Below are positions 13,872 through 62,215 of a stretch of DNA of 64,000 nt, one piece after another. The notes beneath the pieces were generated by a model that saw only the letters and a list, made by a program, of their open reading frames with translations, was not told the DNA's origin and searched no databases. This DNA is from an uncultured delta proteobacterium (lineage in GTDB: Bacteria > Desulfobacterota > Desulfomonilia > UBA1062). The stretch spans positions 340-64,339 of the forward strand of contig CAWAUM010000009.1 in the NCBI GenBank assembly GCA_963785235.1. Reading direction: 5' to 3'. The position numbers were made by a program, and so were the translations under genes. Numbering within the stretch: position 1 is the stretch's first letter; every line of letters starts with the position of its first letter.

Positions 13872-13935
13872 AAACCCAGATTTTGCGTTTAGGACGTTTT
13901 AAAAACCTGATCCGTTCAAGTCCTGTCATCTTACA
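13872..13935 (+). repeat. hairpin-MITE family, 5' arm remnant
   Basis: AAACCCAGATTTTGCGTTTAGGACGTTTTAAAAACCTGATCCGTTCAAGTCCTGTCATCTT is the TIR plus left arm plus left half of the hairpin. There is no right half. It starts 22 nt after the DUF3343 stop. Confidence 0.75.
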
Positions 13936-14168
13936 ATATTTATCGAAAGCTTATTTTCTTGGTCCTGAAGAGTGGAATCTCTCCTTTGTGTAGAGTGAAT
14001 TGTTCTTATAGTAATCGTTGCTTCATCCGCGTCATCGGCGAGTATAGATTATATTCAGAACTATTCAATATCTTTAAAGGATTGATCATGGAATGTTATA
14101 TTCAGTTTCTTTGGGCTTATAGAACCATTGATTTTATTGCAAAATCATTAGTCTGAGAAAAGTGAAGA

Positions 14169-14620
14169 TTATTGGCACTTGAATGTATCCCGATAGCTTG
14201 AGACGTACTCAGGCCTCGGATATGCGAATCTCGCCTCTTTCAGCACAAAAGGTTCTCTAAACACGTCGGACATCATTCTCAGAACTGAGACAAACTCCCT
14301 CTCATAGATGAAGCGGCGGATATCTTTCAGGTCGATAAGCTCTTTCATTGTTATATATGCAAGGGGCTCCACCACGCTCAGTTCATAGCTGAAATACGTC
14401 AGGGTCCGATACCAGTTAAGCCAGCCTGCGCATGACTGACATTTCCTGATTTAGGCTTACGAACATCTCGGGATCATCCAGGTCTTAGGGTTTTATACCG
14501 CTGAATGCCAGCAGCTTCTCAGCATCGATGCCCCGTCCTGCGGCATAACGGGCAAGGATGTCGATGCTGTTGATTGAGCGATACATCGGCAGGGATGATC
14601 TCGATGCAAGGTGAATTTTA
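14169..14620 (-). pseudogene. decayed AraC-family regulator (ligand-binding-domain remnant)
   Basis: The minus strand reads MYRSINSIDILARYAAGRGIDAEKLLAFSGIKP*DLDDPEMFVSLNQEMSVMRRLA*... and then ...FVLKEARFAYPRPEYVSSYRDTFKCQ. It has several stops and no HTH part. Confidence 0.5.
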
Positions 14621-14738
14621 TCAGGAACAGTTTTTTTCAAATATCTACCTGTGGCAGCTAATCACAATATAATTGTCAATACGCAACAAGATAAATTATA
14701 TTGCATGAGAACAATTCAATGTAGATGGAGGGTCAACC

Positions 14739-58861: not shown

Positions 58862-61800
58862 ATGCCAAAGAGAACCGACATCCACAAGATCATGATCATC
58901 GGGAGCGGGCCCATTGTCATAGGCCAGGCATGTGAATTCGACTATTCCGGCACCCAGGCCTGCAAGGCCTTAAGGGAACTCGGCTATAAAATTGTTCTTG
59001 TCAACTCGAACCCGGCCACCATCATGACCGACCCGGGCATGGCCGATGCCACCTATATCGAACCTTTGAATGCAACCGCACTGGAGCCTATCATAGCCAA
59101 GGAGATGCCCGATGCCATCCTGCCGAATCTGGGCGGCCAGTCGGGCCTGAACCTTACCTCTGAGCTCCACCGCAAGGGAATCCTAGAAAAGTACGGGGTC
59201 AAGGTGATCGGCGTGAATGTGGACGCCATCGAGCGCGGCGAAGACAGGCGCGCCTTTAAGGAGACCATGACCCGCCTGGGCATCGAGATGCCCAAAAGCG
59301 AACTCGCCTACACCGTGGACGAGGCCGAAAGAATAGCCTCCGAGCTGGGCTACCCGGTTGTGCTCAGGCCTGCCTACACCATGGGCGGCACGGGCGGCGG
59401 TCTTGTCTACAACGTGGAGGAACTGCGGACCGTTGCAAGCCGTGGCCTTTCCGTGAGCCTCATCGGCCAGGTGCTTGTGGAAGAGTCCGTGCTCGGATGG
59501 GAAGAGCTGGAACTCGAGGTGGTGCGCGACGCCAAGAACAACATGATCACGGTCTGCTTCATCGAGAACGTGGATGCCATGGGCGTGCACACGGGCGACT
59601 CCTTCTGCACCGCACCCATGCTCACCATTGACAAGGAGCTCCAGAAGAGGCTCCAGAAGCACTCTTACGACATCGTGGAGGCCATCGAGGTGATCGGCGG
59701 CACCAATGTCCAGTTCGCCCATGACCCGAAGACGGGCAGGGTCGTGGTTATCGAGATAAACCCCCGCACGTCGCGTTCATCCGCACTGGCGTCCAAGGCC
59801 ACGGGCTTCCCCATCGCACTCGTGTCCAGCAAGCTCGCAGCCGGGCTCACCATGGACGAAATCCCCTACTGGCGGAGCGGCACCCTGGACAAGTACGAGC
59901 CCTGGGGAGACTATGTGGTGGTGAAATTCTCCCGCTGGGCCTTTGAGAAGTTCAAGGGCTCCAAGGACCAGCTCGGCACCCAGATGAGGGCCGTGGGCGA
60001 GGTCATGAGCATTGCAAAGACCTACAAGGAGGCGCTCCAGAAGTCCATCCGCTCGCTGGAAATAGGCCGGTATGGCCTGGGCTTTGCCAAGGACTTCCAT
60101 GAAAAGGACCTCAAGACCCTGCTGGACATGCTCTCAGAGCCATCCAGCCAGCGGCAGTTCATCATGTACGAGGCGCTGCGTAAAGGCGCAAGCGTCTTGG
60201 AGCTTCACCAGAAGACCTACCTGAAGGCCTGGTTCATCGAGCAGATGAAGGAACTCGTGGACCTGGAGGAAAAGATCCTCACCTATAAGGGCAAGCAGCT
60301 GCCCGATGAGCTTCTTATCCAGGCCAAGAAGGATGGTTTTGCCGACCGCTACCTTGCCATGCTGCTGGGCCTGCCTGAGGATGACATCAGAAACCGCAGG
60401 TTGAAGATGGGCCTGGTGCACGGTTACGACAAGGTGCCGGTGAGCGGTGTGGAGAATGCCGAGTATTACTATTCCACCTACAATGCCCCGGACACGATAG
60501 AGGTGAGCGACAGGCCCAAGATCATGGTCTTAGGCGGCGGACCCAACCGCATCGGCCAGGGCATCGAGTTCGACTACTGCTGCGTCCATGCGGCCTTTGC
60601 CATCAAGGCCATGGGCTATGAGTCCATCATGGTGAACTGCAACCCCGAGACGGTCTCCACCGACTATGACACCTCCAACAAGCTCTACTTCGAGCCGCTG
60701 ACCGTTGAAGAGGTGTTGAGCATATACAACAAGGAAAAGCCCATGGGCGTGATCTGCCAGTTCGGCGGCCAGACCCCGCTGAATATTGCCAATGAACTTG
60801 CAAAGGCCGGGGTGAAAATCCTGGGCACCTCTCCTGTCACCATCGACCTTGCCGAGGACCGTGACCGCTTCGGCAAGATGATGGTGAAGCTGGGCATCCC
60901 CATGCCCGAGTCCGGCATGGCAAGCACCCTGGATGAGGCCCTGGCAATTGCAAACCGCATCGGATACCCGCTCATGGTCAGGCCGTCGTATGTCCTGGGC
61001 GGCCGCGGCATGGAGGTGGTGCACGACGAGGACATGCTCCGGGAATATGTCCGCGCGGCCGTTGACGTGACACCCGAGCGGCCCATCCTCATCGACAAGT
61101 TTTTGGACAACGCCATCGAGGCCGAGGCGGATGCCATCTCGGACGGGGTTAATGCCTATGTGCCTGCAGTCATGGAGCACATCGAGCAGGCGGGTGTCCA
61201 CTCGGGCGATTCGGCATGCGTGATCCCGCCCATCAGCATACCCACCAAGCATCTGGACACCATCATCGAGTTTACCAAGCGCATCGCCATCGAGCTCGGC
61301 GTGGTAGGCCTCATGAACATGCAGTATGCCATCCACAAGGACACGGTCTATGTCCTGGAGGCAAATCCCAGGGCCTCGCGGACCGTTCCGCTGGTATCCA
61401 AGGTATGCAATATCCCCATGGCCAACATCGCCACCCAGATCATCCTGGGCAAGAAGCTCGGTGATTTCGACATCACCCCCAAGACCATACGACACTTCGG
61501 GGTAAAAGAGGCGGTATTCCCTTTCAACATGTTCCCCGAGGTGGACCCCCTGCTCGGTCCCGAGATGCGCTCCACCGGCGAGGTGCTGGGCATGGCGGAC
61601 AGCTTCGGCCTGGCCTTCTACAAGGCATCGGAGGCGGCATCTCAATATCTGCCCAAGGAAGGTACCGTGCTGCTGACTGTGTCCCGTCGGGAACGTCCGG
61701 CAGTGCTCGAGGTGGCACGGCTCTTTACCGAGCTGGGCTTCAAGATCAAGTCAACGCTGCATACCCATGCATTCCTCAAGGAGAACGGAATCGCTGCCGA

Positions 61801-62062
61801 GCTGGTGCTCAAGCTCCACGAGGGCAGGCCCAATATCATCGACGGCGTCAAAAACAAGGAATATGCACTGATCATCAACACGCCCAGCGGCAAACTCTCT
61901 AAGCATGATGACTCCTACATCCGCAAGGCAGCCATCAGCTACAAGGTTCCCTACATCACCACATTGTCCGCGGCAATCGCCGCAGCCAAGGGGATTGCCG
62001 CCTACAGGCAGGGCGAGGGTGTCGTCAAGTCATTACAGGAGTATCACCGGGATATCGGTTGA
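58862..62062 (+). CDS. carB: carbamoyl-phosphate synthase large subunit
   Basis: 1066 aa, intact. Two ATP-grasp halves (IGSGPIVIGQACEFDYSG ... LGGGPNRIGQGIEFDYC) and a C-terminal MGS-like domain. Confidence 0.95.
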   Translation: MPKRTDIHKIMIIGSGPIVIGQACEFDYSGTQACKALRELGYKIVLVNSNPATIMTDPGMADATYIEPLNATALEPIIAKEMPDAILPNLGGQSGLNLTSELHRKGILEKYGVKVIGVNVDAIERGEDRRAFKETMTRLGIEMPKSELAYTVDEAERIASELGYPVVLRPAYTMGGTGGGLVYNVEELRTVASRGLSVSLIGQVLVEESVLGWEELELEVVRDAKNNMITVCFIENVDAMGVHTGDSFCTAPMLTIDKELQKRLQKHSYDIVEAIEVIGGTNVQFAHDPKTGRVVVIEINPRTSRSSALASKATGFPIALVSSKLAAGLTMDEIPYWRSGTLDKYEPWGDYVVVKFSRWAFEKFKGSKDQLGTQMRAVGEVMSIAKTYKEALQKSIRSLEIGRYGLGFAKDFHEKDLKTLLDMLSEPSSQRQFIMYEALRKGASVLELHQKTYLKAWFIEQMKELVDLEEKILTYKGKQLPDELLIQAKKDGFADRYLAMLLGLPEDDIRNRRLKMGLVHGYDKVPVSGVENAEYYYSTYNAPDTIEVSDRPKIMVLGGGPNRIGQGIEFDYCCVHAAFAIKAMGYESIMVNCNPETVSTDYDTSNKLYFEPLTVEEVLSIYNKEKPMGVICQFGGQTPLNIANELAKAGVKILGTSPVTIDLAEDRDRFGKMMVKLGIPMPESGMASTLDEALAIANRIGYPLMVRPSYVLGGRGMEVVHDEDMLREYVRAAVDVTPERPILIDKFLDNAIEAEADAISDGVNAYVPAVMEHIEQAGVHSGDSACVIPPISIPTKHLDTIIEFTKRIAIELGVVGLMNMQYAIHKDTVYVLEANPRASRTVPLVSKVCNIPMANIATQIILGKKLGDFDITPKTIRHFGVKEAVFPFNMFPEVDPLLGPEMRSTGEVLGMADSFGLAFYKASEAASQYLPKEGTVLLTVSRRERPAVLEVARLFTELGFKIKSTLHTHAFLKENGIAAELVLKLHEGRPNIIDGVKNKEYALIINTPSGKLSKHDDSYIRKAAISYKVPYITTLSAAIAAAKGIAAYRQGEGVVKSLQEYHRDIG

Positions 62063-62077
62063 ACTGAATAAGGACTT

Positions 62078-62215
62078 GTTTTTAAAATAGGTCCGTTCAA
62101 AACCTTAAAGATCGCAGCCTTTGTGGAATGCTGATTGTAGCGGTCCTTCAAGGCTGCGATCTTTAAGGTTTTGAACGGATCAGGTTTTTACACTTTTTGA
62201 ACGCGAAATCCGGGG
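62078..62215 (-). repeat. hairpin-MITE family, half copy; loop in the minority orientation
   Basis: Hairpin 62090-62181 with box CCTTAAA/TTTAAGG. CTTGCAGCC is replaced by GATCGCAGCC, compensated by GGCTGCGATC. It then runs GGTTTTTACACTTTTTGAACGCGAAATCCGGGG. The CCATGG-containing arm is absent. Starts 16 nt after the carB stop. Confidence 0.8.

Follow-up and report, generated by a model that had tools for sequence, protein, structure and literature searches.

A 64,000-nucleotide stretch from an uncultured delta proteobacterium (contig CAWAUM010000009.1, positions 340 to 64,339; hereafter the window) raises the question of what the palindromic repeats behind its genes are, and how their hairpins came to be so well paired. 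Ten loci share one architecture of ~220 bp and together make up 1830 nt, or 2.9% of the window. [quoted passage not shown] By every defining feature tested, the repeats are a genuine MITE. We regard it as very probable that this MITE is of the IS1380 type, that it targets the pentamer WTWAW, and that it carries a palindromic cargo which is reshaped by exchange at the DNA level.

The family was recovered from the window by mechanical repeat finding. An nhmmer profile built from the five full window copies and searched against the window returned these copies at 22538-22791 and 35054-35309 on the minus strand and at 37241-37497, 46156-46412, and 49419-49684 on the plus strand. The same search found partial copies at 39930-40125, 26400-26554, 62071-62221 (minus strand), and 13866-13966, as well as a weak stem-only remnant at 51062-51134. 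A pattern describing the hairpin arms matched 14 times in the window and not once in 100 shuffles. The layout predicted for the copies, with the TIR, the left arm GTAAAAACC, a hairpin with a co-varying 7-nt box, and the right arm, is correct for the lineage of the window and of a related metagenome-assembled genome (MAG).

The family is dispersed and does not reflect a local duplication, since 24 copies lie on at least 15 contigs of the related MAG and others on at least 120 metagenome contig stretches. An exact-pattern scan of one genome per species, covering 185,579 species, matched a single species-representative genome. This is the fragmented MAG (record CAYMDG01), which contributed 17 stretches (L001-L017) with the 24 copies and is syntenic with the window at 91-93% nucleotide identity. 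A scan of metagenomes gave the at least 120 contig stretches, on which our counts over relatives rest. The window and 137 fetched loci thus form a collection of 138 sequences from the window, one MAG, and 120 metagenome contigs; in these, nhmmer finds at least 198 copies, and 101 of them are full-length, differ from one another, and come with flanks that can be used. Window segments have further orthologues on the metagenome contigs L033, L047, L066, L109, and L133, which are 87-93% identical to them. Many of the fetched contigs break off within a copy, which is what a repeat that disrupts assemblies should cause. The MAG is labelled 'uncultured Bacteriovoracaceae bacterium' (Bdellovibrionota). 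This label may be unreliable because the gene content common to the MAG and the window (2-hydroxyacyl-CoA dehydratase, radical SAM, DsrE/TusA, ResB, and GTP-PEPCK) looks anaerobic.

The statement that the sequence belongs to no named family stands. No Rfam family matches anywhere in the window at the gathering threshold, and in E-value mode the segment from 35 to 50 kb matches only eukaryotic microRNA-precursor and snoRNA models, at 20-39 bits against thresholds of 40-245. In addition, blastn of the consensus found no match among 72,556 plasmids or 50,697 phage records. Judged by Rfam, by the plasmid and phage searches, and by the literature, the family is previously undescribed, and MITEs themselves are an ordinary kind of element.

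The ends of the element identify it as a transposon. The alignment of the 101 copies gives a consensus of ~220 bp, 5'-CCCAGATTTTGCGTTTAAGA...TCAAACGCAAAATCTGGG-3', with a perfect TIR of ~20 bp, and the ends could be refined to CCCAGATTTTGCGTTT...AAACGCAAAATCTGGG, with 5-bp target-site duplications (TSDs) directly outside. The boundary is sharp. Mean pairwise identity is 0.77-0.78 in the TIRs, 0.76-0.79 in the spacers, 0.85 in the stem arms, and 0.64 in the tip and loop, and falls from ~0.77 in the TIRs to 0.26 in the flanks. Of 93 copies, 29 have an exact 5-bp TSD, where permutation gives a mean of 5.1 and a maximum of 12, and 45 have one when a single mismatch is allowed; among the same copies there is no excess of direct repeats at 4 or 6 bp. 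The duplicated sequences are AT-rich and follow the logo WTWAW, with TTAAA in nine copies, ATAAA in six, TTTAT in four, and TTTAA in three. The element is non-coding and, at ~220 bp, within the size of prokaryotic MITEs (up to ~600 bp), and its sole recurrent open reading frame (ORF), of 11 codons from ATG to TGA, lies in the right spacer.

Comparison of strains, which had been proposed as the way to define exact ends and any duplication, yielded a site in its empty and filled states. The window has a single TTAAT within 57340-57520 where contig L109 reads TTAAT-[element]-TTAAT. In the MAG, an extra short-form copy is inserted at the right end of the 37.4-kb element. One copy is nested inside the loop of another, with the TSD CTAAT, and more nested copies occur among the fetched loci. 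The TIRs, the TSD, the empty site, and the nesting indicate that the element is a MITE mobilised by a DDE transposase and has been active since the strains diverged. The MITE-like character that had been proposed is thus borne out, and the TIR of the consensus is perfect over ~20 bp.

A candidate parent was found through TIR matches outside MITE copies in all fetched DNA. Contig L025 carries, at 963-2547, an insertion sequence (IS) of 1585 bp with the TIRs CCCAGATTTTGCGTTTGAAG and GCTAACGCAAAATCTGGG, which match the MITE at 16 of 16 and 15 of 16 bases. It begins CCCAG and ends CTGGG, holds one ORF, and has a MITE copy for a neighbour, 50 bp away along the contig. The 464-aa product matches Pfam DDE_Tnp_1_4 at 93.7 bits (cut-off 34.7) and NCBIfam NF033539, 'IS1380 family transposase', at 178.4 bits (cut-off 180) over profile positions 1-416 of 419. 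When the protein was searched against plasmids by tblastn, the best hits under annotated genes were nearly all IS1380-family transposases, at 35-36% identity over 92-96% of the query. Its identity to the transposase of ISEcp1 is 28% by tblastn, and the left inverted repeat of ISEcp1 (CCTAGATTCTACGT, taken from a plasmid record) agrees with the MITE end CCCAGATTTTGCGT at 11 of 14 bases. The transposase belongs to a family of 2404 metagenome proteins at E <= 1e-30, mostly on contigs of ~1.6-2 kb, and relatives at 76-82% identity have the same TIR type. These comparisons suggest that the L025 transposase is effectively a divergent IS1380 member. An IS of the IS1380 family measures ~1.5-2 kb, has a single ORF and CC at the start of its ends, and gives a TSD of 4-5 bp; the length, single ORF, and CC ends of the L025 IS and the 5-bp TSD of the MITE fit this description.

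The similarity between the IS and the MITE is restricted to ~20 nt per end, both MITE ends resembling the IS end downstream of the transposase gene, and the hairpin is absent from the parent IS. Therefore, the interior of the MITE is unrelated cargo. A second MITE family, at 1207-1369 of contig L094, has the same IS1380-type TIRs around an unrelated interior. It is 163 bp long, is flanked by TATAA and TTTAA, and has its own palindrome GTAGGAGCG...CGCTCCTAC. This second element fits one transposase serving several passengers. Apparently, the MITE is mobilised in trans by an IS1380-family transposase encoded elsewhere.

The position of the copies relative to genes reflects both the target and selection. 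The original prediction had the elements parked just after stop codons, and as a description of position this is right: every window copy lies downstream of a gene 3' end, and the short distances from stop codon to element are confirmed by the ORF coordinates and the element ends. As a sign of a function linked to stop codons it does not hold, because WTWAW contains TAA and the copies are oriented without bias, 39 facing the same way as the upstream gene and 43 the opposite way. Where the genes are in tandem, the arms run 12 with and 12 against transcription, and the tip of the hairpin likewise divides 12:12. The lack of orientation bias means that position after stops alone is no sign of function. 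Target pentamers occur in the window at 9.4 per kb of intergenic and 3.2 per kb of coding sequence (2.9-fold), and only 37% of them are intergenic, compared with 10 of the 10 window copies, so that target preference and purifying selection are both needed. The copies sit after stops because the target contains TAA and is denser between genes, and because selection acts against insertions in coding sequence. Of 82 flanks facing a gene 3' end, 11-12 have the stop codon 0-2 nt from the element end, in or beside the TSD. By a crude ORF-based method applied to 72 copies, 26 lie between convergent, 25 between tandem, and 12 between divergent genes.

The core of the element is a palindrome of ~100 nt, in which a perfect stem of 27 bp leads, through an imperfect upper stem, to a loop. 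On both strands this palindrome dominates the predicted fold, which for the whole element has an energy of -81 kcal/mol, with z = -7.4 for one strand and -6.8 for the other. Among 143 distinct copies the 27-bp stem is 99.0% paired, 13 of its 27 pairs show changes on both sides, and double changes outnumber one-sided ones by 365 to 16 cells. The covariation score of 0.259 was reached by none of 500 shuffles, which gave 0.071. The variation of the stem is confined to positions 8, 10, 14-19, and 24. The box occurs in 44 variants, and its two halves are perfectly complementary in 152 of 171 copies. The double changes are mostly transversion pairs (AU<->UA, AU<->CG, UA<->GC), which cannot pass through a G.U intermediate, and the mismatches of the stem show no excess of G.T over A.C (17 and 12), that is, no RNA signature.

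Although its layout was correctly predicted, the central hairpin is not a static feature, since it is swapped and inverted both between copies and between orthologous loci. The tip of ~36 nt, which comprises the imperfect upper stem and the loop, has one orientation (A) in 126 copies and the reverse (B) in 45. Most copies with tip B retain the outer asymmetry GATCCG...CGGACC, so the inversion breakpoints lie inside the perfect repeat. The whole palindrome is flipped in L003_707, L067, and L127. Between L061 and L125, arms and flanks are near-identical and the tip is an exact reverse complement, and chimeric arms occur in L054, L112, and L114. Seven orthologous comparisons give flank identities of 0.88-0.93 and hairpin identities of 0.96 in two cases and 0.66-0.77 in the other five, so that the hairpin has been replaced or inverted at five of seven loci. 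The differences between orthologues fall at the positions that vary family-wide. At the 49.4-kb locus, this suggests copying from existing variants. The core is perfectly paired and yet swapped and flipped between copies unusually fast. As far as sequence comparison can tell, gene conversion and template switching at the DNA level would explain it best, ahead of selection at the RNA level.

In the IS1380-type reading, a DDE transposase of the IS1380 family would recognise the ~20-bp TIRs; it would come in trans from an IS of 1.6 kb elsewhere in the genome or the population. Insertion duplicates 5 bp of an AT-rich WTWAW target that is enriched between genes. Selection clears insertions in coding sequences and promoters, so that the survivors accumulate, in both orientations, downstream of genes. 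Ectopic gene conversion between the many copies, which can pair in either register owing to their palindromic arms, would keep the arms identical and flip the tip. Template switching within the palindrome would add to conversion, and the two processes together would yield apparent 'compensatory' evolution, tip inversion, and the replacement of hairpins at orthologous loci. In quasi-palindrome correction and the concerted evolution of inverted repeats, as in the plastid flip-flop, a change in one arm is copied across to the other, the segment between the repeats inverts, and the arms remain identical with no selection on pairing. Applying quasi-palindrome correction to the core of this MITE is our inference. 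Template switching is known from single loci or repeats of organelle scale, whereas here it would act on a 27-bp stem present in hundreds of dispersed, exchanging copies. As side effects, the hairpin might, when co-transcribed, pause or terminate transcription or protect 3' ends, and the TIR might supply an outward -35 element. A selfish MITE that is tolerated downstream of genes remains the best-supported account.

Several points weigh against the IS1380-type reading. The transposase would be tied to the MITE through common TIRs, a TSD that is compatible, and the fact that both occur on one contig. As predicted, no transposase was found in the window: the parent transposase has no tblastn match there, and Pfam reports none in the 30 of ~70 ORFs that were scanned. 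Three complete copies of the IS have no clean 5-bp TSDs in their flanks, and the NCBIfam score for IS1380 is 1.6 bits under its cut-off. In addition, invariant blocks of the stem (TCCG.T.AAA and ATCT.GCAGCC) are more conserved than the TIRs and could have a sequence-specific function. Neutral cargo with conversion explains them only if conversion is very frequent, and conversion between copies does not by itself account for the origin of 44 perfectly paired box variants. Finally, most of the relatives are metagenome contigs from short reads, and chimeric assembly inside repeats could mimic some of the swaps and inversions. The agreement of two independent assemblies at the 46.2-kb locus cannot come from such chimeras and speaks against them as the general cause.

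Alternatively, the element, or its hairpin core at least, could be kept for an effect in RNA. Transcribed together with the upstream gene, the hairpin of ~35 bp would terminate transcription or stabilise the 3' end whichever way it faces, in the manner of REP/BIME, SPRITE, and ERIC elements, and the covariation would reflect selection on pairing. We consider this possible but on balance unlikely. The great stability of the fold agrees with it, and the 99% pairing, set against ~22% pairwise divergence elsewhere in the element, is far above neutral expectation. The placement of every window copy behind a gene and the over-representation of convergent regions point the same way. However, arms and tip have no orientation bias relative to transcription, and 12 of 63 classified copies lie between divergent genes. 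On the minus strand of the element the stem is followed by AAGTTTTTAC; on the plus strand it is followed by CCTATTTAAAAA, with no U-tract. Canonical intrinsic terminators have a short stem rich in GC, a loop of 3-8 nt, and a U-tract 0-2 nt past the stem; this identity was rejected, as the stem is ~35 bp long and AT-rich with a 14-nt loop, the plus strand has no U-tract, and the U5 of the minus strand begins three nt past the stem. The terminator scan flagged no copy between 34 and 52 kb. The prevalence of transversion pairs with few G.U intermediates (16 one-sided against 365 double changes) and the even G.T and A.C mismatches also disfavour selection in RNA, and a conserved tip that is reverse-complemented in 26% of copies would be odd for an RNA motif. 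In favour of an RNA-level role there is also the remnant at 51062-51134 on the plus strand, which has lost the tip and consists of a perfect 22-bp stem followed by TTTTTGGTTTT. It lies 34 nt past the stop of a MATE gene (51028), and L109 retains it with one pair changed in a compensatory manner and a single G.T change. This remnant may have been kept as a terminator after the MATE gene, the single hint of co-option by the host. More generally, termination, pausing, or protection of mRNA 3' ends by the hairpin may be considered a candidate function.

A further possibility, which we think doubtful, is that the core is a hairpin module, specific in both sequence and structure, whose invariant blocks, 6-nt box that co-varies freely, and invertible tip are recognised by a factor of the host or the element. 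Such a module would be, for example, a cruciform or single-stranded DNA site that aids synapsis of the close-set TIRs, or an RNA 3'-end element that works in either orientation, and its symmetry would be kept by intrinsic copying from arm to arm. If so, the MITE would offer a natural high-copy system in which self-correction and inversion of palindromes could be followed in real time.

It is quite improbable that the core is instead a separate mobile or recombining module with a protein of its own, independent of the IS1380 transposase, such as a tyrosine or HUH transposase acting on a REPIN-like element or a site-specific invertase. The tip does occur in both orientations, even the outermost asymmetric stem positions are flipped in the three copies in which the whole palindrome is inverted, hairpins differ at orthologous loci where the TIRs have not moved, and the invariant blocks suggest recognition by a protein. 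However, the hairpin hardly ever occurs outside the MITE arms: of ~160 internal hits, only 4 have their start within the core, and those 4 are products of decay like the 51-kb remnant. The breakpoints are variable and lie inside the perfect repeat, which fits homologous exchange and not a fixed site, and the identity gradient and the replaced spacers at 35 kb indicate long conversion tracts that reach beyond the hairpin. In addition, the 30 window ORFs scanned with Pfam include no recombinase or Y1 transposase, and the arms are not themselves REP-like palindromes.

That the copies are a family of structured non-coding RNA genes or a small peptide gene, and not a transposon, is scarcely credible, even with a conserved right spacer (~79 nt, mean pairwise identity 0.76) and the 11-codon ORF of the consensus, because the TIRs, TSDs, and empty site show transposition, insertion orientation is random, Rfam gives no family at threshold, no conserved promoter is evident when the consensus is read on either strand, and the small ORF was rejected as a peptide gene, being intact in only 18 of 101 copies with its third codon positions the most conserved. 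The promoter scan of the window flags one site at a copy, a hybrid at 46385-46412 whose -35 TTGCAA lies inside the right TIR of the MITE and whose TG-extended -10 TATCAT lies in the flank, 47 nt upstream of the asparaginase start codon. TTGCAA stands at this position of the TIR in about 40% of family members. The site may be due to chance, as the scan gave 10 sites where 13 were expected.

Having found the IS1380-type MITE the most probable reading, we can compare it with described elements. ISEcp1, ISPme1, and IS1380 likewise have a single DDE ORF and termini that start with CC; the window element differs from them in lacking a transposase and in having only ~20 nt per end in common with the IS. 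Members of this family are known to capture neighbouring genes in a one-ended manner, as transposable modules (PMC9330008), and are not known for high-copy MITEs. Two MITE reviews do not mention IS1380 (PMC10969869, PMC3184786), and in the literature we found no paper that describes an IS1380-derived MITE. The Correia elements (CREE) of Neisseria are, like the present family, high-copy, non-coding, and intergenic, with lengths of ~100-200 bp and TIRs at their ends, and they lie near genes or are co-transcribed with them (PMC10969869). They form stable hairpins, and their inversion and effects on the expression of neighbours are reported (PMC10969869). No similarity of sequence is to be expected between the two, and a comparison of their descriptions sets them apart, as the present element has a 5-bp TSD and an internal 100-nt hairpin that is separate from its TIRs. 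In Correia elements, the 26-bp TIRs themselves form the hairpin and the duplication is TA; an IHF site, promoters, and RNase III processing have been shown for them.

Chunjie, a MITE of Geobacter uraniireducens, is 178-235 bp long, AT-rich, and intergenic, with TIRs of ~21 bp, a stable fold, and many partial copies (PMC3184786, PMC10969869). The present family resembles it in size, TIR length, AT-richness, stable predicted fold, intergenic position, and the abundance of partial copies. Chunjie is flanked by 9-bp direct repeats (PMC3184786), which, compared with 5 bp here, implies a different transposase family, and the TIR and TSD features of its description set it apart. REP elements and REPINs are also palindromic, intergenic, and often located between convergent genes, and REPINs are hairpin doublets with complementary halves. 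However, REPINs have no TIRs or TSDs, consist of short imperfect palindromes, and need a Y1 (HUH) transposase, RAYT, whose gene the repeats flank, whereas here there are TIRs, a 5-bp TSD, and a DDE parent. Identity with REP or REPIN was rejected on the TIRs and the TSD, on arms that are not internally palindromic, and on the lack of a Y1 transposase among the scanned ORFs. An integron attC site was likewise rejected on the TIR and TSD features.

The individual window copies illustrate both insertion and decay. Among the full copies, the one at 22560-22779 on the minus strand (220 bp, tip A) lies between the convergent genes of aroF (stop 22548) and a response regulator (stop 22817), and its orthologue in the MAG (L010) has the same hairpin at 96% identity. 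The copy at 35076-35298, also on the minus strand (223 bp, tip A), lies in the gap between pckG and a rhomboid gene. Compared with three orthologues (L003, L033, and L066), its interior has been replaced, and it is now like two other window copies, those at 39.9 and 46.2 kb. The plus-strand copy at 37262-37475 is full apart from an 11-nt deletion in the right spacer, is flanked by TTTAT and TTTAC, and begins 88 nt past the pckG stop (37173) and ends 23 nt ahead of the next start codon. The copy at 46178-46398 on the plus strand, upstream of the asparaginase gene, is full-length with a degenerate left TIR and tip A; its orthologues in two independent assemblies (L014 and L047) have an inverted tip and a different box. 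The last full copy, at 49441-49663 on the plus strand (223 bp), is flanked by ATTAA and ATCAA and follows an ORF that ends at 49420. Relative to its orthologue in L109 it shows six fully compensated double changes in the stem.

The remaining copies are incomplete. A truncated plus-strand copy at 13875-13966 has kept its left TIR perfect (CCCAGATTTTGCGTTT, 13875-13890) together with the left spacer, and the left half of its hairpin is present in decayed form. Directly outside its end is GTAAA, and the copy is located 24 nt past the stop of a 75-aa ORF (13623-13850). Two short or truncated copies with tip B have neither right spacer nor right TIR. One, at 26407-26554 on the plus strand, consists of the left TIR, a hairpin at 26441-26531, and an A-rich tail, and lies between a crp-like gene (stop 26383) and a convergent radical-SAM gene (stop 26553). 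The other, at 62071-62214 on the minus strand, has its left TIR at 62199-62214 and its hairpin at 62092-62179, and abuts the carB stop (62062). The copy at 39938-40125 on the plus strand, which follows the dehydratase stop at 39915, has no right end, as a deletion of ~140 nt relative to the MAG orthologue took the right TIR and an adjoining terminator-like hairpin. Its own hairpin is unlike that of the orthologue, with the box CCTTTAT instead of CAGTCAT.

The names that the original prediction gave to the flanking genes are supported by Pfam for DAHP synthase, the Crp-like regulator, rhomboid, GTP-PEPCK, 2-hydroxyacyl-CoA dehydratase, alpha/beta hydrolase, ADP-ribosylglycohydrolase, and MATE. 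Several of the neighbouring genes are split across frames. GTP-PEPCK (region 35358-37173) is divided into 35358-36485 and 36280-37173, and the same is seen in the D-component of the dehydratase (37499-39915), the rhomboid gene (34291-35127), the asparaginase gene (46459-47599), and the ADP-ribosylglycohydrolase gene (47973-49420). The splits suggest indel errors of a long-read assembly or pseudogenisation, and because of them small indels inside the repeat copies need caution. Within the dehydratase-subunit gene, window 39272-39598 and L003 5067-5168 differ by ~225 nt in length or by a divergent patch.

Other features of the window lie outside the family. Where L109 has a MITE (4644-4861), the window has at 52081-52121 a GC-rich double hairpin of ~45 nt, GCCGGGGCCCTAAAAAGGGCACCCGGC...CCCCGGGGCACCCCCCCGGG, which is a different small insert or a terminator. 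A 2.4-kb segment at 53061-55453 has no counterpart in L109, which is collinear elsewhere, and is a strain-specific indel; it holds a protein with the metallo-beta-lactamase fold and three ORFs that Pfam does not match. A 48-nt repeat of 88% identity at 11392-11439 and 16737-16784 (GAGATTAyTTTyyATAATCATCGAAAAAGAGGGGCATGG) holds a -10-like TATAAT or CATAAT, a ribosome-binding site, and ATG, and might serve two genes as a common promoter or 5' leader. Six tandem units of 102 nt (63-79% identity) at 23588-24159, in the ORF 23381-24718, have the spacing of 34-residue TPR repeats and are therefore a coding repeat. Lastly, a 154-nt direct repeat of 71% identity at 20096-20249 and 20525-20678, 429 nt apart and also present in L010 of the MAG, is probably an internal duplication of a gene or domain.

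For the organism, if the IS1380-type reading is right, the source genome would contain hundreds of copies, together with one or more IS whose ends are CCCAGATTTTGCG. The family occupies ~3% of the window and breaks many metagenome assemblies, so a profile would aid annotation and binning of this freshwater and sediment lineage and would prevent its hairpins from being taken for RNA genes or terminators. The IS1380 family is clinically important through ISEcp1 and blaCTX-M; our results link a high-copy MITE to it and add a clear 5-bp WTWAW target logo. In addition, more than 140 distinct copies and several orthologous loci provide a data set that can separate compensation at the RNA level from symmetrisation of palindromes at the DNA level. 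They also call for caution in using covariation as evidence of RNA structure, as the covariation of this family is extremely strong and its pattern yet points to a DNA mechanism.

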